A DNA stretch of 63,350 bases from an uncultured Dehalococcoidales bacterium (GTDB taxonomy: Bacteria; Chloroflexota; Dehalococcoidia; Dehalococcoidales; BS750m-G39). The translations under genes were made by a program, and so were the position numbers. The stretch lies in assembly GCA_964505425.1 (NCBI GenBank), contig CAZDHX010000001.1, forward strand, positions 55,452 through 118,801, in the 5' to 3' direction. Shown piece after piece: positions 1,691-15,649 of the stretch; position 1 is the first letter of the stretch; the number at the start of each line of letters is the position of its first letter. The notes below the pieces were generated by a model. It was not told the DNA's origin and did no database searches. It saw nothing but the letters and a program-made list of their open reading frames with translations.

Positions 1691-2338
1691 TTATTTGACC
1701 TTGACCAGAATCATAATATCCCCCGGCTGACCATCGGTTATGCGGCGGGCATTTCGCAGTCTTACCTTGGTTCCGGTCTTTACCCCGGCGGGGATTTTTA
1801 CCCGTAGCCTCTTACCCTTTCTGGTTAGGTCTTTCTCCGCCCCCCGGGCTGCCTGCTCTCTGGTGATGGTTATTTCGTAGCTAACCTCCCGCTGTCGGGG
1901 AGGTTGCGCCTGAGCGAATATTTCTTCAAGCCTCACCCCCCGTGGACCGCCAGCCCCCTGCCTATATACCTTGAAGGAAAAACTCCCCTTTCTCCCTTTG
2001 AGGACTTCGCCGAAGATTTCATCAAGGAAGCCAAGGCCAAGCCCGGAGCCGCCGAAGTCTTTCATTAAGTCCTCAAAGGTAGTCCGGGTATAAGGACTGC
2101 CGAAGATATCGCCGATATTGCCCGCCGTGCCGAACTGGTCGTACTGCTTTCTCTTTTCCGGGTCACCGAGGACGCCGAAGGCTTCGTTAATCTCCTTGAA
2201 CCTTTCGTTAGCCCATTGTTCCTTCCCCGGGTTGCGGTCGGGGTGGTATTGCATCGCCAGCTTGCGGTAAGCCTTCTTTATCTGCTCCTCGGTGGCGTTT
2301 TTGGGGACACCCAGAACCTGGTAGTAGTCCTTAGCCAT
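1691..2338 (-). CDS. Short DnaJ/CbpA-like J-domain protein without zinc finger
   Basis: KDYYQVLGV...YHPDRNP (HPD motif), G/F-rich linker, C-terminal VKIPAGV...KVRLR segment. Confidence 0.9.
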
Positions 2339-2439
2339 TACTATTCCTTATTCCGTAGTTTTATACTACAATTTACGCAGTCTTTCCGCAAGTTGACGAC
2401 ACGCTGCCCAGCATGCGATATGCTATAATTAGGTCGGTA

Positions 2440-3597
2440 ATGAGTAAAGCCGGAGTGAGACGCCACGTCAAGATAGTGTGCACCTTGGGTCCCGCCAGCA
2501 GTTCCCCCAAGGTTATGGAGAGGATGCTAAAGGCGGGCATGGATATTGCGCGCCTTAACCTGGCACACGGCACGCTTGAGGAACACAGCCGTCTCATTTC
2601 TGAAGTCCGCTCACTCAGCCGAAGGCTCGGGCTCCCTCTGGGCGTCCTTCTTGACCTTCCCGGTCTGAAATACCGCCAGGGGGGTATCCGGAGCGTTTTC
2701 GGTGAGCACCTTGATTTTGCCTTCTCACGGAAGGCTGATTTCGTTGCCCTCTCTTTCATTTCCTCGGTGCGGCAGGTGCGGGAGGTCAAGCAACTGCTCA
2801 GAAACATGAAGGCTGATATACCGGTCATTGTCAAGATAGAAGAGGGACGGGCTCTGGAAGAAATTGGCGCCCTGCTTGAGGTGGGGGAGGGTATCATGGT
2901 TGCTAGGGGAGACCTGGCACTTGACATAAGCATTGAGAAGGTGCCAACCGCCCAGAAGCGGCTGATAGGCGAAGCCAATCGCCGGGGAAAGCCGGTGATA
3001 ACTGCCACCCAGATGCTTGAGTCCATGGTCAGGTCGTCCAGCCCGACGAGGGCGGAGGCTACTGATGTCGCTAATGCCGTCCTTGATGGCAGTGATGCCC
3101 TGATGCTCTCTGAGGAAACAGCCACTGGCAGTTACCCCGTTGAAGCTACTGAAACAATGGTGAAGATAGCCCTTGAGGCTGAGGCGATACTTCCCTATGA
3201 AGAGATGCTCCGCAGCCGGTGGCAGGATGTCCCACCGGAAAGCAGTGATGCCACCGCCAGAGCCGCCTGCCAGATGGCTCACCAGGTGCAGGCTAAAGCC
3301 ATCGTTGCCTTTACCGCCAGCGGCACTACTGCCTTGAGGGTCTCAAAGTATAGACCGCGCCACCCGATTCTGGCGATAACCCCCTCCGAGTCTGTGGTGA
3401 GCCACCTTGCCTTATCCTGGGGGGTATTACCCGTTAGAAAAAATGAACCAGTAAACCTTGAGGAGGTCTTTGAGCTAGCTGGCGAAGCAGCACTGGAGAC
3501 AAAACTCGCTAGGAAGGGTGACCTTGTCGTGGTTACTGCCGGTATTCCGCTGACTGTTCCCGGAAGCACAAATCTGGTCAAGATACACAGTATCTAA
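2440..3597 (+). CDS. pyk: Pyruvate kinase lacking the B (lid) domain, 385 aa
   Basis: KIVCTLGPAS, RLNLAHG, VKIE, VARGDL, TATQMLESM, PTRAEATDVANAVLDGSDALMLSEETA. Start moved to ATG 2440, just after TGcTATAAT at 2421-2429. Confidence 0.9.
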   Translation: MSKAGVRRHVKIVCTLGPASSSPKVMERMLKAGMDIARLNLAHGTLEEHSRLISEVRSLSRRLGLPLGVLLDLPGLKYRQGGIRSVFGEHLDFAFSRKADFVALSFISSVRQVREVKQLLRNMKADIPVIVKIEEGRALEEIGALLEVGEGIMVARGDLALDISIEKVPTAQKRLIGEANRRGKPVITATQMLESMVRSSSPTRAEATDVANAVLDGSDALMLSEETATGSYPVEATETMVKIALEAEAILPYEEMLRSRWQDVPPESSDATARAACQMAHQVQAKAIVAFTASGTTALRVSKYRPRHPILAITPSESVVSHLALSWGVLPVRKNEPVNLEEVFELAGEAALETKLARKGDLVVVTAGIPLTVPGSTNLVKIHSI

Positions 3598-3611
3598 ACT
3601 ACCCGTCAAGG

Positions 3612-3640
3612 TTGACAGGTACTGTTCCCCAGTTTATAAT
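3612..3640 (+). promoter_or_regulatory. Perfect-consensus sigma70 promoter of degV
   Basis: TTGACA (3612-3617), 17 nt, TATAAT (3635-3640). Confidence 0.85.
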
Positions 3641-3710
3641 ACCTCGTTGTACTAGGTATATCTATCTCTTCTTGTGTTTACGAAGCTCGGTAGGGCGGTG
3701 AGATAAGAAT

Positions 3711-4568
3711 ATGACCGAGACTGCTGTTGTCGTCGACAGCATTGCCTGCATTCCCCGGGAGCTGACTGAGAAGTTTAGAATCAGAATCGTCCCGGCTAAC
3801 ATCTTCTTCAATGGCAAGCTTTACCGTGACCTGGCAGACTTGACCCCCGCCCAGGCTTATAAGTTTCTTAATGGAGCCCCTCAGTTCTGGAAGAGTTCGG
3901 CGGCTTCTCCTGAGGACTATGCTGGAGCTTACCGCGCCCTCGGCAATGCCCGCAATATCCTGGTAATTACCATATCGTCCAAAATCAGCATGTTCTACGA
4001 GAGTGCCCGGGCGGCTAAAGAAATAGTCAAAAGGGAACTGTCTGCAACGGCGATTGAGGTCCTTGATAGCCGGACTGCCGCTGCCGCCGAAGGGCTTATT
4101 GCCCTGGCAGCAGCGCGGGCGGCTAAGGAAGGCAAGACCTTCCGGGAAGTCATGAGCATAGCCAGGAAGGTCAAGAAACGGGTGAGGTTTCTCGGTCTGC
4201 TTGAGACCATTCGGCATGTCTATAGAACGGGACGCATACCCAAGCTGGCTTCCCAGCTAGGCTCGTTGCTTTCTCTCAGACCAATTCTCACCGGCACTGA
4301 CGGCGTTATCCGTTTTGCCGGTGCCGCCAGGACCAAGCGTAGTGGCATTGAAAAGATGCTCCGCATGATGAGAGAACAAATAGGCAATTCAGGGCAAGTC
4401 CACGTTGCCGTAATGCATGCCGATGCCGCTGAAGAAGCCCGGATGCTCAGGGAAAGGATAGCCGCCGAGTTCGACTGCGCCGAGCTTTTCGTTACCGACT
4501 TCACCCCGATTATGGCTTATGCTACGGGCAGAGGAACATTAGCCCTCGCCTTTTACAAGTCCATCTAG
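3711..4568 (+). CDS. DegV family fatty-acid-binding protein
   Basis: AVVVDS, ITISSKISMFYESA, EVLDSRTA, ETIRHVYRTGRI, VMHAD, G.GTLALAF. 285 aa. Confidence 0.9.
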   Translation: MTETAVVVDSIACIPRELTEKFRIRIVPANIFFNGKLYRDLADLTPAQAYKFLNGAPQFWKSSAASPEDYAGAYRALGNARNILVITISSKISMFYESARAAKEIVKRELSATAIEVLDSRTAAAAEGLIALAAARAAKEGKTFREVMSIARKVKKRVRFLGLLETIRHVYRTGRIPKLASQLGSLLSLRPILTGTDGVIRFAGAARTKRSGIEKMLRMMREQIGNSGQVHVAVMHADAAEEARMLRERIAAEFDCAELFVTDFTPIMAYATGRGTLALAFYKSI

Positions 4569-8451: not shown

Positions 8452-9290
8452 AGATTGAGAAGACCGGGGAAATTGGTTTTTGCTACGGGGTTAAGCGTGC
8501 CATCGATATTTTAGAGAAGGTTGCCCGTGAGCGTGGCAGCGTGGAAACGCTGGGGGCGGTGGTGCATAACCAGCAGGTACTGCAGAGACTGGCTGGGATT
8601 GGGGTCAGGGTAGTGCCGACGATAGATGATATACGGGGCAATATGGTGGCCATTAGCTCTCACGGCGCCAGTCCGCAAATGGAAGAAAAGCTTCGCACCC
8701 GGCGTATTGAGATAGTGGATACCACCTGCCCCTTCGTTCACCGGCTCCAGATTGCCGCCCGCAGATTGGCCAGAAACGGCTTTTTCGTTGTTATCTATGG
8801 TGATGCCGACCATACCGAGGTCAAGAGCGTCCTCGGTTGGGCTGGGGGGAAGGGGGTGGCAACCCTTGATGATAAGCTTGTCGCCAGGCTGGACCCTCTG
8901 CCCCGCCGCCTGGGTATCCTCTCTCAGACCACCCAGATACCAGCTCATTTTACCGAGTTTGTCAAGCGGCTCATTGACTCGGTCTTTACTCGGGATTCCG
9001 AGCTGCGCATTATTGACACCATATGTCATGATATTAGAAGACGGCAGGCGGAAGCCCTTGACCTGGCGGACAGGGTGGACCTGATGCTGGTTGTTGGTGG
9101 GCGGGGCAGCGCTAATACCAATCGTCTCGCCGAGTTATGCTCGGCGTTGACCGAGACTCATCTTATTGAGACGGCGGAGGAAATCAAACCCGCCTGGTTT
9201 CGGGGTAAGAAAAATATCGGTGTAACCTCCGGCGCTTCTACCTCGCAGCAAACTATAGACGAAGTCCTGGCCCGGCTGGAAGGCTTATAG
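8448..9290 (+). CDS. ispH: 4-hydroxy-3-methylbut-2-enyl diphosphate reductase
   Basis: GFCYGVKRA, SHG, DTTCPFV, HTEV, SQTT, TICHD, SANT, TSGAST. Confidence 0.95.
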   Translation: MKIEKTGEIGFCYGVKRAIDILEKVARERGSVETLGAVVHNQQVLQRLAGIGVRVVPTIDDIRGNMVAISSHGASPQMEEKLRTRRIEIVDTTCPFVHRLQIAARRLARNGFFVVIYGDADHTEVKSVLGWAGGKGVATLDDKLVARLDPLPRRLGILSQTTQIPAHFTEFVKRLIDSVFTRDSELRIIDTICHDIRRRQAEALDLADRVDLMLVVGGRGSANTNRLAELCSALTETHLIETAEEIKPAWFRGKKNIGVTSGASTSQQTIDEVLARLEGL

Positions 9291-10406
9291 CTTCATCTCC
9301 TGAGCCACCACCTCGCGGTAGAAATCGGCGTCACCGAAGGAGACCTCAGCCGCCTTAGCCCGCCGGGTGTAGTATTGTAAGTCGTGGTCTATGGTCACGC
9401 CGATGGCGCCGTGGATCTGGTGGGCTAAAGCCATTACCCGCTGGCAGGCTTCACCCGCCCACGCCTTGGCGATGGCTATTTCTTTGGTGGCGGGGAGACC
9501 CTCGCTCAGCATCCAGGCAGCTTGATAGGTAGAAAGCCTGGTGCCGTCAACATCGGTGGCCATATCGACGCAGTAGTGCTGGATAACCTGAAAGCTGCCG
9601 ATGGGGCGGCCATACTGCTTTCTTTCCTTGGCGTAACTGACCGTCATGTCCAGCGCCTCCTGGATACAGCCTACCATCTCACAGCACTTTGCCACCGCGG
9701 CTCGCTGGATTATCTTTTGCACCTCTTGCCACCCCTGGTCCAGCTCACCCAGGATATTTTCTTTAGGGACTTTAACTTCCTTAAAGACCACCTGGCACAG
9801 CTTGTCGTTGGCGATGGTGTTGAGCACGGTGGAGCTTATCCCCGCACTTTTAGCATCGACGATAAATATAGTTATTCCCTTATCGGTCCTGGCTACCACC
9901 AGCATGTAATCAGCAACATTAGCATCGGGGACAAAGAGTTTTGTCCCGTTTATAACATAGCCATCACTATCGGCGGTAGCCTTGGTCTTGATGGCGTCGG
10001 CGTCATAGCTGGCGCTAGCTTCGGTCAGGGCGAGGGTGAAGATTATCTCACCGCTGGTTATTTTGGGTAAATACGCCTGTTTCTGCTCCTCGCTGCCGAC
10101 ATCGGCGATGGCTAGCCCGCCGAGGATGACGGTGGAGAAGTAGGGACCGGGCAGGCAAGCCCGCCCCATTTCCTCGAGCAGAACTGCCAGGTCAAGGAAG
10201 CTCATGCCGCTGCCGCCGTACTTTTCGGGGAATGCCAGCCCCATCCAGCCCAGCCCCGCCATTTCCTGCCACAGCTCCGGTGAGTAGCCGGCTTCGCTCT
10301 GTTCAATTTCCTTGACCACCGTCTTGGGGAATTTATCGGTAAGAAAATCGCGAGCCATTTTCTTTAGCATTTCTTGTTCTTCAGAGAGAGCCAGATTCAT
10401 TATCAT
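9285..10406 (-). CDS. Acyl-CoA dehydrogenase family protein, beta-type partner of a split ACAD pair
   Basis: ACAD fold (LALTE, INGTKLFV, RKQYGRPIGSFQVIQH, QIHGAIG). No IYEGT-type catalytic loop. Downstream of a second ACAD gene. Confidence 0.85.
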   Translation of the reverse strand: MIMNLALSEEQEMLKKMARDFLTDKFPKTVVKEIEQSEAGYSPELWQEMAGLGWMGLAFPEKYGGSGMSFLDLAVLLEEMGRACLPGPYFSTVILGGLAIADVGSEEQKQAYLPKITSGEIIFTLALTEASASYDADAIKTKATADSDGYVINGTKLFVPDANVADYMLVVARTDKGITIFIVDAKSAGISSTVLNTIANDKLCQVVFKEVKVPKENILGELDQGWQEVQKIIQRAAVAKCCEMVGCIQEALDMTVSYAKERKQYGRPIGSFQVIQHYCVDMATDVDGTRLSTYQAAWMLSEGLPATKEIAIAKAWAGEACQRVMALAHQIHGAIGVTIDHDLQYYTRRAKAAEVSFGDADFYREVVAQEMKL

Positions 10407-10435
10407 GCCTCCTAGTTATCTACGTTATCTACTGG

Positions 10436-11608
10436 TTATTCGCTGGGTAATTCCAGCTTTCTTAAAGCCAGGATGTTCTTCAGCACCTCGGTGGTGCCAG
10501 CCTGAAGGCTATAGCCCTTTGATGACAGGTATGAGTGATAAGCCATGCCCTGCATCGGCGCCAGTTTGGACTGGGGTGATAGCTGTCCGTAGAGCCCCAG
10601 AATCTCTATCGCGGTGGCAGCTAGGCGCTGCTCAAAGGCAGTGCCGTATGCCTTGCTCATGGATGATTCCCAGTTTGGCGCCCGCCCCTCATCCATGACC
10701 GTCGCCACGCGGTACATATGCAGCCGCCCGATTTCAAATTCAATCTGGAGCTGAGCCAGCTTGGGTCGAATAGTCGGGTCTTCGGATAGGGGCTTGCCCT
10801 TTCTCTTGGTCTCCCTGGTGTATTTGATGAGGGTGTCAAAGAGGGGGTAGTTAGCCATCAGGCGCTCCATGCCGCTCCTCTCGTAGTCAAGCTGGTTCAG
10901 AATCTGATAAAAGCCCTTGTTTTTCTCCCCGATGAGGCTTTTCTTGGGGATGCGCACGTTTTCAAAGAAGACCTCGTTGAAGTGCACCCCACCGGTGATA
11001 TCGGCGATGGGCTGTACATCAACCCCGGGCAGGCTGGTCTCGAAAAAGAACTCGCTGATGCCCCGGTGCTTGGGGGCATCGGGGTCAGTCCTGGCGACCA
11101 GGTAAATCCAGTTCATGTGGCTGCCGCCGCTGGTCCATGTCTTCTGCCCGTCGATTATATAGTCGTCGCCGTCCTCAACGGCTCGGGTCTTAAGTGAGGC
11201 GAGGTCGCTGCCGGCGTCGGGCTCGCTCATGCCCAAGCCGACATAAGCTTCGCCCTTTAGTATCATAGGCAGCAGCTCTTTTTTCTGCTCCTCGGTCCCG
11301 TAGTGGACGATGGCGCCGCCAATCTGTCGGTCGGCGAACCAGTGGCAGGCGGCTGGTGCCCCGTAGCGGAGCATCTCTTCGGTCAGGATGAGCCGGTCAA
11401 TAAATGACCGCCCCTGCCCTCCAAGCTCCTTGGGCCAGGTGAGCCCAATCCAGCCCTGTTTTGCCACCCGCTTGCTGAACTCCGGGTTATGCCCCATTAT
11501 CCAGGCATCGCAGGTGGGCTGCCATAGTCCTTGCCTTATCTCCTCTTCCAGAAACTTACGAACCTCAAGTCTGAACTTCTCCTGCTCATCAGTTAATCTA
11601 AAGTCCAC
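10436..11608 (-). CDS. Acyl-CoA dehydrogenase, alpha-type subunit of a split ACAD pair
   Basis: LGMSEPDAGSDLASL, DGQKTWTS, FNEVFF, LDYER, LQAGTTEV. Confidence 0.9.
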   Translation of the reverse strand: MDFRLTDEQEKFRLEVRKFLEEEIRQGLWQPTCDAWIMGHNPEFSKRVAKQGWIGLTWPKELGGQGRSFIDRLILTEEMLRYGAPAACHWFADRQIGGAIVHYGTEEQKKELLPMILKGEAYVGLGMSEPDAGSDLASLKTRAVEDGDDYIIDGQKTWTSGGSHMNWIYLVARTDPDAPKHRGISEFFFETSLPGVDVQPIADITGGVHFNEVFFENVRIPKKSLIGEKNKGFYQILNQLDYERSGMERLMANYPLFDTLIKYTRETKRKGKPLSEDPTIRPKLAQLQIEFEIGRLHMYRVATVMDEGRAPNWESSMSKAYGTAFEQRLAATAIEILGLYGQLSPQSKLAPMQGMAYHSYLSSKGYSLQAGTTEVLKNILALRKLELPSE

Positions 11609-11663
11609 GCTTACTCTCTCCTTCTAATCGTTGGTCTGAGTCTCTAGTCTGGTGGTCTGAAGC

Positions 11664-11912
11664 CTAGGTGGTGTGTAGGGCGAGACAGGTCACAGTCCGG
11701 GAAATGCCGGGAATGGGGTGGATTTTTCCGGTGACCAGGTCACCAATATCGTTTAGAGTGGCTCCCTCCATTATGGCGATGATGTCATAGGGGCCGGTTA
11801 CAATGTCAACCGATTTTATCCCTTTCAACCTTTCCAGGGCGGCGGCTACTTCCTTGTTTTTGCCCACCTCTGTCTCAATCAGGACAAACGCTCTAGCTGC
11901 CATTAAACTCAC
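11664..11912 (-). CDS. Stand-alone Lrp/AsnC ligand-binding-domain protein
   Basis: AFVLIETEVG...VTGPYDIIA...IPGISRTVT. No HTH. Confidence 0.85.
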   Translation of the reverse strand: MSLMAARAFVLIETEVGKNKEVAAALERLKGIKSVDIVTGPYDIIAIMEGATLNDIGDLVTGKIHPIPGISRTVTCLALHTT

Positions 11913-12037
11913 TCCTCTATATCAGCTTAAAGGATTGTAATACTGAGCTTGCTCTACTGTCAAGGTCATCGCCTTGCAGTGAGTGTTTGGCTTGGCTTAT
12001 AATGAGCTACCTTGTAGCGAAATTCAAGGAGGACGAG

Positions 12038-13195
12038 TTGGAATACTTTTTAACCGAGCAGCAGAAGGAAATTAGGAAGCTGACGCGAACCATAGCTGAG
12101 GAGCAGGTATTGCCAGTGCGGGCAGCGCTTGATGAGAAGGAAGAGTTTCCCCTGGAGATTATGAAAATCCTCGCTGACGCTGGCTTGTTCGGTGTCTATA
12201 TCCCTGAGGAGTACGGTGGTCTGGGGGGTGGCATTTTTGAGCTCTGCCTGGTGGTGGAGGAGCTGAGCCGCGTGTGTAGTGGCGTGGCCGTTAGTTATGC
12301 CGCCAGCGGGCTGGGGACGTTGACCCTTTTACAGTTCGGCAGCGACGAGCAGAAACGCCGGTTCCTGCCTGATATCGCTGCTGGCAGGAGAATGGCTGCC
12401 TTCGGCTTAACCGAGGAGGGTGCCGGTAGCGATGCCGGTGGCATAAAGACGACGGCCCAGCGCACCGATAAGGGTTATATCCTTAACGGGACGAAACAGT
12501 TTATTACCAACGGCGGTGACGCTGAGGTATATACTATTATCGCCTTAACCGATAAGGAGAGGGGACCTCGCGGTGCCAGCGCTTTTCTGGTGGAGAAGGA
12601 CACGCCCGGCTTCACCTTCGGCAGGAAGGAGAAGAAGCTGGGCATCCGTGCTTCTTCAACCAGGGAGCTCGTTTTTGAGGATTGCCTCGTCCCCGCCGAG
12701 AATATAATCAGTCGGGAGGGGATGGGTTTTATTATGACCATGAAGCTGCTGGACTACTCCCGCCCCGGCTTGGGCGCCCAGGCGCTGGGGTTGGCTCAGG
12801 GGGCTCTGGAGGCGGCGGTGGACTATGCCAAGCAGCGTGTTCAATTTGGGCACCCCATTTTTGCCCAGCAGGCTGTCCAGCACCTGCTGGCGAATATGGC
12901 CATTCGGGTAGAGGCGGCTCGGGGGCTGGTCTATGCCGTCGCCAAGACGATAGATAGCGGCGCCAGGGATTTCACCAGAGATTCGGCGATGGCTAAGGTC
13001 TTTGCCTCAGACACGGCGATGAGGGTTACCACCGATGCCATGCAGGTCTTTGGCGGCGTCGGTTATATGCGGGATTATCCCATTGAGAAGATGTTCCGGG
13101 ACGCCAAGATTACCCAGATATACGAGGGTACCAATCAGGTGCTGAGGAATGAGATTGCCTTTGAGTTGAGGAAGCAGAAGTGGGTGCTGAAATAA
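12038..13195 (+). CDS. Acyl-CoA dehydrogenase (butyryl-CoA dehydrogenase-like)
   Basis: FGLTEEGAGSDAG, NGTKQFITNG, KLGIRASST, QIYEGTNQV with the catalytic Glu. TTG 12038 follows AGGAGG. Confidence 0.92.
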   Translation: MEYFLTEQQKEIRKLTRTIAEEQVLPVRAALDEKEEFPLEIMKILADAGLFGVYIPEEYGGLGGGIFELCLVVEELSRVCSGVAVSYAASGLGTLTLLQFGSDEQKRRFLPDIAAGRRMAAFGLTEEGAGSDAGGIKTTAQRTDKGYILNGTKQFITNGGDAEVYTIIALTDKERGPRGASAFLVEKDTPGFTFGRKEKKLGIRASSTRELVFEDCLVPAENIISREGMGFIMTMKLLDYSRPGLGAQALGLAQGALEAAVDYAKQRVQFGHPIFAQQAVQHLLANMAIRVEAARGLVYAVAKTIDSGARDFTRDSAMAKVFASDTAMRVTTDAMQVFGGVGYMRDYPIEKMFRDAKITQIYEGTNQVLRNEIAFELRKQKWVLK

Positions 13196-13991: not shown

Positions 13992-14921
13992 ATGGCTGAA
14001 ACAATGAAGACAGCCTACGTCTTTCCCGGGCAGGGCGCTCAGTGGGTGGGGATGGGGCGTGACCTGTACCAGAATTTTGATTCGGCTAAAGCCGTCTTTG
14101 AGCAGGCTGACGAGGCGTTGAGCTTTCCCCTCTCTAAGCTGTGCTTTGACGGTCCGGAGGACGAGCTCCTCCAGACGGTAAACGCCCAGCCAGCGATAGT
14201 AACCGTTAGCTTCGCCTGCCTGGAGGCGATGCGGGGTGTGAGCGGGCTTGAGCCCGCCTTTGTTGCCGGGCACAGTCTGGGAGAATATACCGCGCTGGCG
14301 GCGGCGGGGGTGCTTGATTTCGCCACCACCGTCTATCTTGCCAGGGAGAGGGGGAGGCTGATGCATGAGGCGGGGCAGATAACGCCCGGCGGCATGGCGG
14401 CCGTAATCGGGCTTGATGAGCCAGCACTGGCTGAGGTCTGTTCCGAGACTGGCGCTTGCGTTGCTAATATCAACTGTCCTGGTCAGATAGTAATCAGCGG
14501 GGCTGAGGACAAGTTAGCCAAGGCCATGGATTCGGTTAAGGTGAGGGGGGCGCACCGCGTCATCCCTTTGCAGGTAAGCGGCGCCTTTCATACCCCCCTG
14601 ATGCAGCCGGCGGTTGACGGCATGGCTGAGATTATAGCCAAGCTTTCCTTTAATAAACCAGCCGTCCCCATTATCGGTAATACCACCGCCCAGCCGCTGA
14701 CCACGGCTGAGCTGGTCAAGGAGGAACTCCTCCGGCAGCTGTGCAATTGCGTCCAGTGGCAGCGTTCTGTTGAATATATGCTCGGCGATGGGGTATCCTC
14801 TTTTGTTGAGATTGGGCCGGGGAGAGTGCTGGCTGGTCTGATTAAGCGGATTGACAGGGATGTTAATATAGTTAATATCGGCGATGCCGAAGCGGTCGAG
14901 AATATAGGGGTTAAAAAATGA
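13992..14921 (+). CDS. fabD: Malonyl-CoA:ACP transacylase
   Basis: FPGQGAQ, GHSLGE, N.PGQIVISG, VSGAFH. Confidence 0.95.
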   Translation: MAETMKTAYVFPGQGAQWVGMGRDLYQNFDSAKAVFEQADEALSFPLSKLCFDGPEDELLQTVNAQPAIVTVSFACLEAMRGVSGLEPAFVAGHSLGEYTALAAAGVLDFATTVYLARERGRLMHEAGQITPGGMAAVIGLDEPALAEVCSETGACVANINCPGQIVISGAEDKLAKAMDSVKVRGAHRVIPLQVSGAFHTPLMQPAVDGMAEIIAKLSFNKPAVPIIGNTTAQPLTTAELVKEELLRQLCNCVQWQRSVEYMLGDGVSSFVEIGPGRVLAGLIKRIDRDVNIVNIGDAEAVENIGVKK

Positions 14922-15649
14922 ACCTTTCTGATAAAGTGGCTATCGTTACCGGTGGTGGGCGGGGGATAGGGAAGGCGATTGTCCTCAGGCTGGCTGAAGC
15001 CGGGGCTAATATTGTCGTCAATGACGTTGAGCCGGTTGACGCCGTAGTCGGGGAGATCGAGGCTATGGGCAGGCAGGCCTTGCCGGTTTTAGCCGATGTC
15101 AGCTCGGCGGCAGACGTCGATAAAATGGTGACGGAGGCTATTACCGCCTACGGGCGGATTGATATTCTGGTGAATAATGCCGGCATTGCCCGAGACCAGC
15201 TTCTGCTGCGGATGACGGAGGAGGAGTGGGACAGCGTGCTCGCCGTTGACCTGAAGAGCGTTTTTCTCTGCACCAGAGCCGTGCTAAAGCATATGGTCAA
15301 ACAGCGCAGGGGCAGGATTATCAGCATTTCCAGTATTACTGGCATCGTGGGCAACCCGGGGCAGGCTAACTATGCCGCCGCCAAGGCGGGTATTATTGGC
15401 TTTACCCGGACGATTGCCAGGGAGGTAGCCTCCCGCGGTATAACGGTCAATGCTATTGCCCCCGGCTTTATTGAGACTGAGATGACCAAGGGGTTGAAGA
15501 CGGAGTGGAGAGAGGAGCTTAAAAAGCGGATTCCCCTTGGTTGCTTTGGCACCCCCCGCGATGTGGCGGAGGCGGTCGCCTTTCTTGCTTCTGATGCGGC
15601 AGGCTATATCACCGGGCAGGTCTTGGGTGTGGACGGGGGTATGACATAG
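14918..15649 (+). CDS. fabG: 3-oxoacyl-ACP reductase
   Basis: TGGGRGIG, NNAGIARD, NYAAAK, VNAIAPGFI; follows fabD. Confidence 0.93.
   Translation: MNLSDKVAIVTGGGRGIGKAIVLRLAEAGANIVVNDVEPVDAVVGEIEAMGRQALPVLADVSSAADVDKMVTEAITAYGRIDILVNNAGIARDQLLLRMTEEEWDSVLAVDLKSVFLCTRAVLKHMVKQRRGRIISISSITGIVGNPGQANYAAAKAGIIGFTRTIAREVASRGITVNAIAPGFIETEMTKGLKTEWREELKKRIPLGCFGTPRDVAEAVAFLASDAAGYITGQVLGVDGGMT

Follow-up and report, generated by a model that had tools for sequence, protein, structure and literature searches.

To our knowledge, the B domain, or lid, of pyruvate kinase (PK) is regarded as present in all PKs and as central to their mechanism. On closing over the substrates, it contributes R119, K206 and D177 to the binding of the nucleotide (PMC8835810). 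In this closed state, the beta-phosphate is held by R119 and the ribose hydroxyls by K206, D177 contacts a water molecule on the Mg2+ of the bound ATP, and His77 borders the adenine pocket (PMC8835810); the O-gamma of Ser76 is a K+ ligand, and the A-domain residue I298 contacts D177, G178 and N209 (PMC4374775). K117, together with L113, Q114 and L, I or V at position 120, is the signature of K+-independent PKs (PMC8835810). Lidless PKs are known from protein engineering, namely the E. coli PykF construct "PK TIM+Reg" (Sugrue et al. 2020, Eur Biophys J 49:761, as cited in PMC10176505) and a human liver PK that was crystallised after deletion of its B domain (PDB 7qdn). PKs without a C domain or with an extra one are mentioned in reviews, and lidless ones are not (PMC10176505). 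Here, we describe a natural and conserved lidless PK clade. Our starting point was a PK homologue carried by a stretch of 63,350 nucleotides, hereafter the window, from an uncultured Dehalococcoidales bacterium (GenBank assembly GCA_964505425.1, contig CAZDHX010000001.1, positions 55,452 to 118,801 of the forward strand). The missing lid had been noticed in a first reading made from the letters of the window (the sequence-only reading), which had tied its novelty to the absence of a prior description. We found no description of a natural lidless PK clade in the open-access literature, and the clade is best seen as a natural, probably new variant within the PK family.

The window protein is a member of the PK family by profile score and by fold. 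Indeed, it reaches 241.1 bits with the Pfam PK domain PF00224 (cut-off 30), 390.7 bits with the pyruvate kinase equivalog TIGR01064 (cut-off 306.4) and 128.8 bits with PF02887 (PK_C, cut-off 28, E 1.3e-37), the last one over the full length of the profile. Both PF00224 and TIGR01064 match in two separate stretches. The second PF00224 stretch joins protein residues 99-245 (in the numbering of a 394-amino-acid (aa) form, see below) to profile positions 181-327 of 328, and the profile positions from about 75 to 180 have no counterpart. The same break is seen in the alignment with the Staphylococcus aureus PK 3t05, where query residues 15-91 correspond to chain residues 21-97, and query residues 80-393 to chain residues 179-492. 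In a library of 1.84 billion representatives, the nearest full-length relative is P0123 (478 aa, 51% identity). Its alignment with the window protein is colinear save for a single in-frame gap of 91 residues (P0123 residues 86-176), which is the B domain. The four alignments agree on the in-frame loss of the entire B domain announced by the sequence-only reading, and its description of the rest of the protein holds as well. The 385-aa open reading frame (ORF) and the quoted stretches LLDLPGLKYRQGGIRSVFGEHLDFAFSRKADFVALSF and GVLLDLPGLKYRQGGIRSVFGEHLDFAFSRKADFVALSF are read in the translation, together with the A-domain catalytic motifs KIE, ARGDL, TATQMLESM and PTRAEATDVANAVLDGSDALMLSEETA, and the C domain is intact.

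The place of the lid seems to be occupied by an ordinary beta-alpha connection. In the AlphaFold2 (AF2) model of the window PK (pLDDT 87.7, pTM 0.89), strand beta3 (residues 68-72) is joined by a loop of 10 residues, LPGLKYRQGG (73-82), to helix alpha3 (83-96). A Foldseek search with this model returned pyruvate kinases only, with TM scores of 0.87-0.92 on the query. The clade shares the junction motif LLDLPGLK-xxx-GD[IVM][KR][AS]VFG[QE]HL[DE]FA, and a pattern test gave a spacing of 30 residues between L-x-D-x-x-G-x-K and DF[VI]ALSF in 116 of 121 homologues. An alternative in-frame ATG at 2413 would lengthen the protein by 9 residues, to 394 aa. The gene starts at 2440 and not at 2413, since a length of exactly 385 aa is shared by 104 of its 120 best relatives in the database and since a conserved -10 box lies between both ATGs.

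The lidless form is not an error of assembly. A 4942-bp Logan contig, assembled independently from a public sediment-metagenome run, carries the same protein and the same neighbours; compared at the contig level, it spans window positions 2300-3700 with zero differences and zero gaps, at a depth of about 10. The best 120 matches in a collection of 5.8 billion proteins (74-100% identity; from JGI, ENA, NCBI and Logan) are all without B domain, and the same gap is present in 4 loci from metagenome-assembled genomes (MAGs) and 40 further metagenome loci (67-90% identity). In total, about 160 relatives from independent metagenomes and MAGs (67-91% identity) are all lidless, with a constant junction length. 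The sequence-only reading had envisaged two ways in which its observation could dissolve, an assembly collapse at the junction and close relatives that all retain the B domain. The first is ruled out by the identical Logan contig and by the same form in the independent assemblies of the relatives, and the second is the reverse of what the relatives display.

Among five lidless genes, the pairwise ratio of nonsynonymous to synonymous divergence (dN/dS) is 0.09-0.19, with dS ranging from 0.19 to 1.47. These values point to a lidless PK under purifying selection, i.e., to a working protein and not to an error. A recent decay of the gene is rejected because of this ratio and because the catalytic residues are invariant (see below). 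In one locus (L052, positions 2910-3925), the lidless PK is broken after about residue 276 by a deletion and a frameshift, and its C domain continues in another frame; this disruption is an exception among the lidless relatives.

When representatives were clustered at 50% identity, the whole lidless clade collapsed into one of them, P0121 (388 aa, 68% identity), which matched in one piece, and all other close representatives were 460-600 aa long and matched in two stretches. We placed the clade in a neighbour-joining tree built on shared columns, with 50 bootstraps. The lidless sequences are monophyletic (50/50 bootstraps) and their sister is the full-length P0123 clade (35/50), whose members are labelled "Dehalococcoidia bacterium" in the source records. 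The mean distance to other PKs is 1.01 for the lidless clade versus 0.91 for its sister, only about 10% more, which suggests that the barrel and the C domain are still under PK-like constraint. The whole B domain was lost through one ancient in-frame deletion, and the dS above 1 within the clade argues that this loss took place long ago. The carriers are probably uncultured sediment and marsh bacteria of Dehalococcoidia-like affiliation. Where lidless members carry a label, it is Chloroflexota or Dehalococcoidales, except for three MAGs labelled Deltaproteobacteria or Desulfobacterales. Lidless genes that are 77-80% identical to that of the window carry conflicting NCBI taxon labels (L001, L002 and L003 versus L004 and L009), and the Deltaproteobacteria and Desulfobacterales labels are due to wrongly labelled bins or to horizontal transfer of the gene. 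Another lidless PK (P0243 and P0390, 385 aa) branches inside the full-length PKs of Clostridium (50/50 bootstraps). Hence, the tree indicates that lid loss happened at least twice, and that only the clade of the window is old and diversified.

We compared residue conservation between 118 lidless sequences and 129 full-length representatives, and mapped window positions onto rabbit-muscle numbering by motif, using family knowledge and two published descriptions (PMC8835810, PMC4374775). The A-domain residues that bind PEP (phosphoenolpyruvate) and Mg2+ or relay the proton are 100% conserved in the 118 lidless sequences: R38, N40, D72, K77, K132 and E134, which correspond to the rabbit-muscle R72, N74, D112, K117, K269 and E271, and R156-G157-D158, T190, S224 and E226, which correspond to R293-G294-D295, T327, S361 and E363. 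The Leu/Lys pair of the K+-independent PKs, pointed out by the sequence-only reading, is also a property of the clade (K117, i.e., K77 of the window, in 100% and L113 in 97% of the sequences). At the other signature positions, 114 is Pro in 99% and not Gln, and 120 is variable (H/R/V/Q). In the C domain, the loop T292-x-x-G295-x-T297 does not vary, either within the lidless clade or in the nearest full-length clade, and it presumably binds the phosphate of an effector in the window PK.

The lidless clade has its own fixed changes at sites conserved in the family, polarised against the equally shallow full-length sister clade. These are S76A, P116L, G297A and a Pro to Ser change in the former A/B contact patch (the equivalent of P301S), i.e., S42A, P76L, G160A and P164S in window numbering; D112Q (385-aa numbering), T10V and V107I are further derived and fixed changes. 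At the start of helix alpha3, in the new motif GD[IVM][KR], a basic residue (K or R) occupies position 84 in 113 of 117 lidless sequences (97%).

The lidless gene seems to be expressed on its own. The sequence-only reading had assigned it a dedicated extended -10 element, TGCTATAAT, and the spacing between this box and the ATG is constant in all the relatives examined: TG(C/T)TATAAT is found 10-11 nt before the start codon in 8/8 relatives whose upstream DNA is otherwise unrelated. No -35 element is found at the consensus spacing upstream of TGCTATAAT. We infer that TGCTATAAT works as a promoter. Since it ends 10 nt from the ATG, the PK mRNA is suggested to be very short-leadered or leaderless. 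In five loci (L001, L002, L007, L008 and L011), a conserved upstream block, …cacggttcttcataattgcgta…ttccgatatgctataat…, lies about 50 nt before the PK start and includes, about 30 nt upstream, a further TATAAT-like box; this block may be a regulatory site. The gene itself reads as monocistronic. The PK stop codon and the downstream degV are 113 bp apart, and in between lies a promoter for degV, which is probably transcribed on its own. We considered DegV as a partner, through PEP-dependent fatty-acid phosphorylation, and rejected it: the adjacency is limited to the closest relatives (L005, L018 and L019), and degV has its own promoter.

No conserved neighbour emerged from the 364 flanking ORFs of 45 or more loci, in which no family occurs in more than 6 loci; the commonest, in 6 and 5 loci respectively, are a generic ABC ATPase and an acetyl-CoA synthetase-like protein. 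A phosphofructokinase (PFK) gene adjoins the lidless gene, convergently, in two loci only. In L052, a PFK homologue (47% identity to the PFK of L014) lies convergently just downstream of the broken lidless PK. The sister full-length PK invariably comes at the end of a (ROK kinase)-PFK-DeoC-type class I aldolase-PK cluster (L010, L013-L016 and L059). In Dehalococcoidia MAGs, this cluster is usually beside dnaN and glycogen/trehalose genes; the aldolase assignment is putative. Within the 578 kb made up by the window and the loci, no second PK was found. The NCBI assemblies with the lidless gene (n=9) and those with the sister full-length gene (n=5) do not overlap, and the protein accession ranges likewise reveal no assembly common to both types in this small sample, a weak hint that each lineage has a single PK type. 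Carriers of the lidless gene include the assemblies GCA_042582645.1, GCA_975966935.1, GCA_975968085.1, GCA_041643295.1, GCA_041643155.1, JAUVYB01, JABMRW01, JABXJW01 and DAOULR01, besides the 118.8-kb contig to which the window belongs.

What could such an enzyme do? The reading that we favour, and to which we give an even chance, is that PEP is still turned into pyruvate, the phosphoryl group going to a nucleoside diphosphate loosely held in an open site, and that the enzyme, under effector control, works more slowly and less selectively than a lidded PK. PEP and Mg2+ would still be bound in the barrel, where Lys117 would provide the positive charge that K+ supplies in other PKs. Phosphoryl transfer would be followed by the protonation of enolpyruvate through the Thr327/Ser361/Glu363 network, giving pyruvate, and the C domain would still answer to a phosphorylated effector. 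The acceptor would most likely remain a nucleoside diphosphate, held mainly by Mg2+, by its phosphates and by A-domain residues in a site that stays permanently open. The lower speed and the lower nucleotide selectivity could be tolerable for a slow-growing anaerobe with a small genome. A retained phosphoryl transfer is favoured over a mere decarboxylase because R72, K117 and K269 are invariant, and a functional PK is supported by the PFK gene found beside the lidless gene in two loci, no other partner being conserved. The engineered E. coli enzyme, in which catalysis reportedly outlasts the removal of the lid, is a precedent.

Several observations weigh against this proposal, and most of them concern the nucleotide. 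K206 and D177 lie within the deleted segment. R119 (R79 of the window), found in 100% of the 129 full-length representatives, has been retained by just 39 of 117 lidless sequences (33%), and 30 of these 117 have no Arg or Lys at any of the positions 78-80; the window PK itself retains R119 (in KYR), though the conservation in the clade is poor. H77 is His in 63 and Tyr in 54 of the 117 sequences, and S76 is changed to Ala in 97% of the lidless sequences. In the lidless clade, the B domain is absent, and the nucleotide contacts of the closed state (R119, K206, D177 and H77) are deleted or poorly conserved. The lidless E. coli construct is reported to have a low activity. No public RNA run holding the lidless gene was found, and a full-length PK, a pyruvate phosphate dikinase (PPDK) or a PEP synthase elsewhere in the genome may do the glycolytic job. 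Taken by conservation, the nucleotide half-site looks degenerate or remodelled, and the PEP/Mg2+/proton-relay site looks intact. This pattern agrees with the altered kinetics or nucleotide specificity, or the new role, that the sequence-only reading had proposed.

The same pattern can be read as neofunctionalisation, a less probable explanation in our view, and the one to be taken most seriously after phosphoryl transfer to a nucleotide. The protein would have become an enzyme of the PEP/pyruvate site that uses no nucleotide: an oxaloacetate decarboxylase, a PEP phosphatase, or a phosphotransferase that hands the PEP phosphate to a larger, non-nucleotide acceptor with access to the open site. 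Oxaloacetate decarboxylation and PEP hydrolysis resemble known side reactions of PK, for which the metal/enolate site is sufficient. Constraint has indeed been lost selectively on the nucleotide side (R119, H77 and S76, with K206 and D177 deleted) while the PEP/Mg side is invariant, the fixed S42A, P76L, G160A and P164S lie on catalytic-face loops and in the former A/B contact patch, and the gene is outside the glycolytic operon that houses the sister PK. However, R72, K117 and K269, which handle the transferred phosphate in PKs, are 100% conserved, and a plain decarboxylase needs none of them. Moreover, the effector loop is kept, divergence from PKs is not accelerated, and none of the 45 or more loci has a conserved neighbour that would hint at another substrate or partner.

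Could the lid act in trans? The active site would then be capped, and the missing nucleotide contacts given, by another protein or by the surface of an adjacent subunit. The former A/B patch (residues 160-167, ALDISIEK) is invariant in the clade and differs from that of other PKs, as a new interface might. But no B-domain-like ORF exists elsewhere in 202 kb (window and loci), apart from the full-length control, no neighbouring gene is conserved in 45 or more loci, and PK and degV each have a promoter of their own, the PK gene being monocistronic as read; we regard a lid in trans as improbable. We think it just as improbable that the protein no longer catalyses anything and survives in a structural or regulatory (moonlighting) role, or that the gene is slowly decaying. 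This idea draws on the absence of the lid, to which a central part in catalysis is ascribed, and on the deletion and frameshift in the C domain of L052. It sits badly with the dN/dS of 0.09-0.19, with the length of 385 aa in 104 of 120 relatives, with the conserved promoter and with the invariance of all catalytic residues; a non-catalytic protein would not keep K269, E271, D295 and T327 fixed. As for an assembly or binning artefact, by a collapsed contig or a chimera, the identical Logan assembly and the repetition of the architecture in JGI, ENA, NCBI and Logan assemblies from many samples make it negligible.

The features of the window are collected in Table 1. An Rfam search of the window gave no match. 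The 701-aa fusion protein is predicted to be a bifunctional synthase of mannosylglycerate, a compatible solute. A synthase/phosphatase fusion of this kind also occurs in Dehalococcoides, which would fit a Dehalococcoidia-like host.

Table 1. Features of the window, with the lidless PK gene and its parts first (positions count from the first letter of the window).
Feature	Position	Strand	Remarks
Lidless PK homologue, coding sequence	2440..3597	+	ATG to TAA, 385 aa; A and C domains, no B domain
Extended -10 element TGCTATAAT	2421..2429	+	Read from sequence; ends 10 nt before ATG
A-domain TIM barrel, about residues 9-250	2464..3189	+	PEP/Mg2+/proton-transfer residues
Junction replacing the B domain, residues D72-A99	2653..2736	+	From P0123 gap, AF2 model and pattern spacing
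C (regulatory) domain, residues 270-383	3247..3588	+	Pfam PK_C profile 1-114 of 114
Sigma-70 consensus promoter, TTGACA-17-TATAAT	3612-3640	+	12/12 matches; upstream of degV
degV	3711-4568		Downstream of PK
CoA_binding/Succ_CoA_lig protein, 480 aa	235-1677		Resembles alpha subunit of ADP-forming acyl-CoA synthetase
Three acyl-CoA dehydrogenase paralogues in a row	9285-13195	two -, one +	
FabD and FabG homologues	13992-15649		After the acyl-CoA dehydrogenases
Mannosyl-3-phosphoglycerate synthase and HAD phosphatase fusion, 701 aa	35089-37194	+	Osmo_MPGsynth (E 2e-143) and Hydrolase_3

The lidless clade amounts to a natural experiment, in which the lid is long gone, the catalytic residues and the allosteric loop are frozen, and the rim of the open site bears substitutions that look compensatory. 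We only tentatively suggest that the protein either is the sole means by which its lineage makes pyruvate from PEP or has been neofunctionalised as another PEP-dependent enzyme. If the former is true, a PK would sustain glycolytic flux in vivo without lid closure and without R119, K206 and D177; if the latter, the open site would serve a non-nucleotide acceptor or the decarboxylation of oxaloacetate. Either outcome, if true, would revise the textbook view of lid closure over the nucleotide as integral to PK catalysis. The lidless PK and its 51%-identical lidded sister could provide a handle on the share of the lid in catalysis, nucleotide selectivity and allostery, and the pair could also reveal whether the rim substitutions make up for the low activity that engineered lidless PKs have. 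The relatives are named "pyruvate kinase" in the databases, and this plain annotation by the pipelines calls for caution in metabolic reconstructions of sediment Dehalococcoidia.

Among known PKs, the canonical bacterial enzymes of solved structure (S. aureus 3t05, Geobacillus stearothermophilus 2e28, Zymomonas mobilis 7ueh and Mycobacterium tuberculosis 5wrp; 35-41% identity) share the barrel, C domain and catalytic residues of the window protein, but all have a B domain, and some have an additional C-terminal PEP-utiliser domain. The sister P0123 clade (478-490 aa) has colinear A and C domains, the DLPG-K-YR start of the hinge, MLSEETA and the effector loop in common with the lidless clade; unlike it, it possesses a 91-residue B domain and keeps S76, P116, R119 and G297. 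The P0123-clade gene also belongs to a PFK-aldolase-PK operon beside dnaN; the lidless gene, in contrast, is solitary, and its surroundings vary between loci. Natural domain loss is also represented by NCBIfam PRK06739 (a 352-aa model), whose short PKs lack a different domain, the C domain; the window PK reaches 191.5 bits with this model, for a cut-off of 564. P0243 and P0390 are B-less and 385 aa long like the window PK, but they are of the E117/K+ type and have another junction (LDIKSSNNEPEIYRKGNLSEKD). Only two Logan clusters, both on short contigs, represent them, and their closest relatives (69-70% identity) are full-length. This lidless form may therefore be recent, decaying or an assembly artefact, and its lid loss is an event independent of that in the window's clade. 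The engineered lidless PKs are PykF "PK TIM+Reg" and 7qdn ("human liver pyruvate kinase", B domain deleted), and the 7qdn chains match our model with TM scores of 0.87-0.91 in Foldseek. Both have the same A and C architecture, with a short linker in place of B, as the window PK. However, they are laboratory constructs, whereas the clade of the window is natural and selected, and carries extra fixed substitutions together with a new loop motif.

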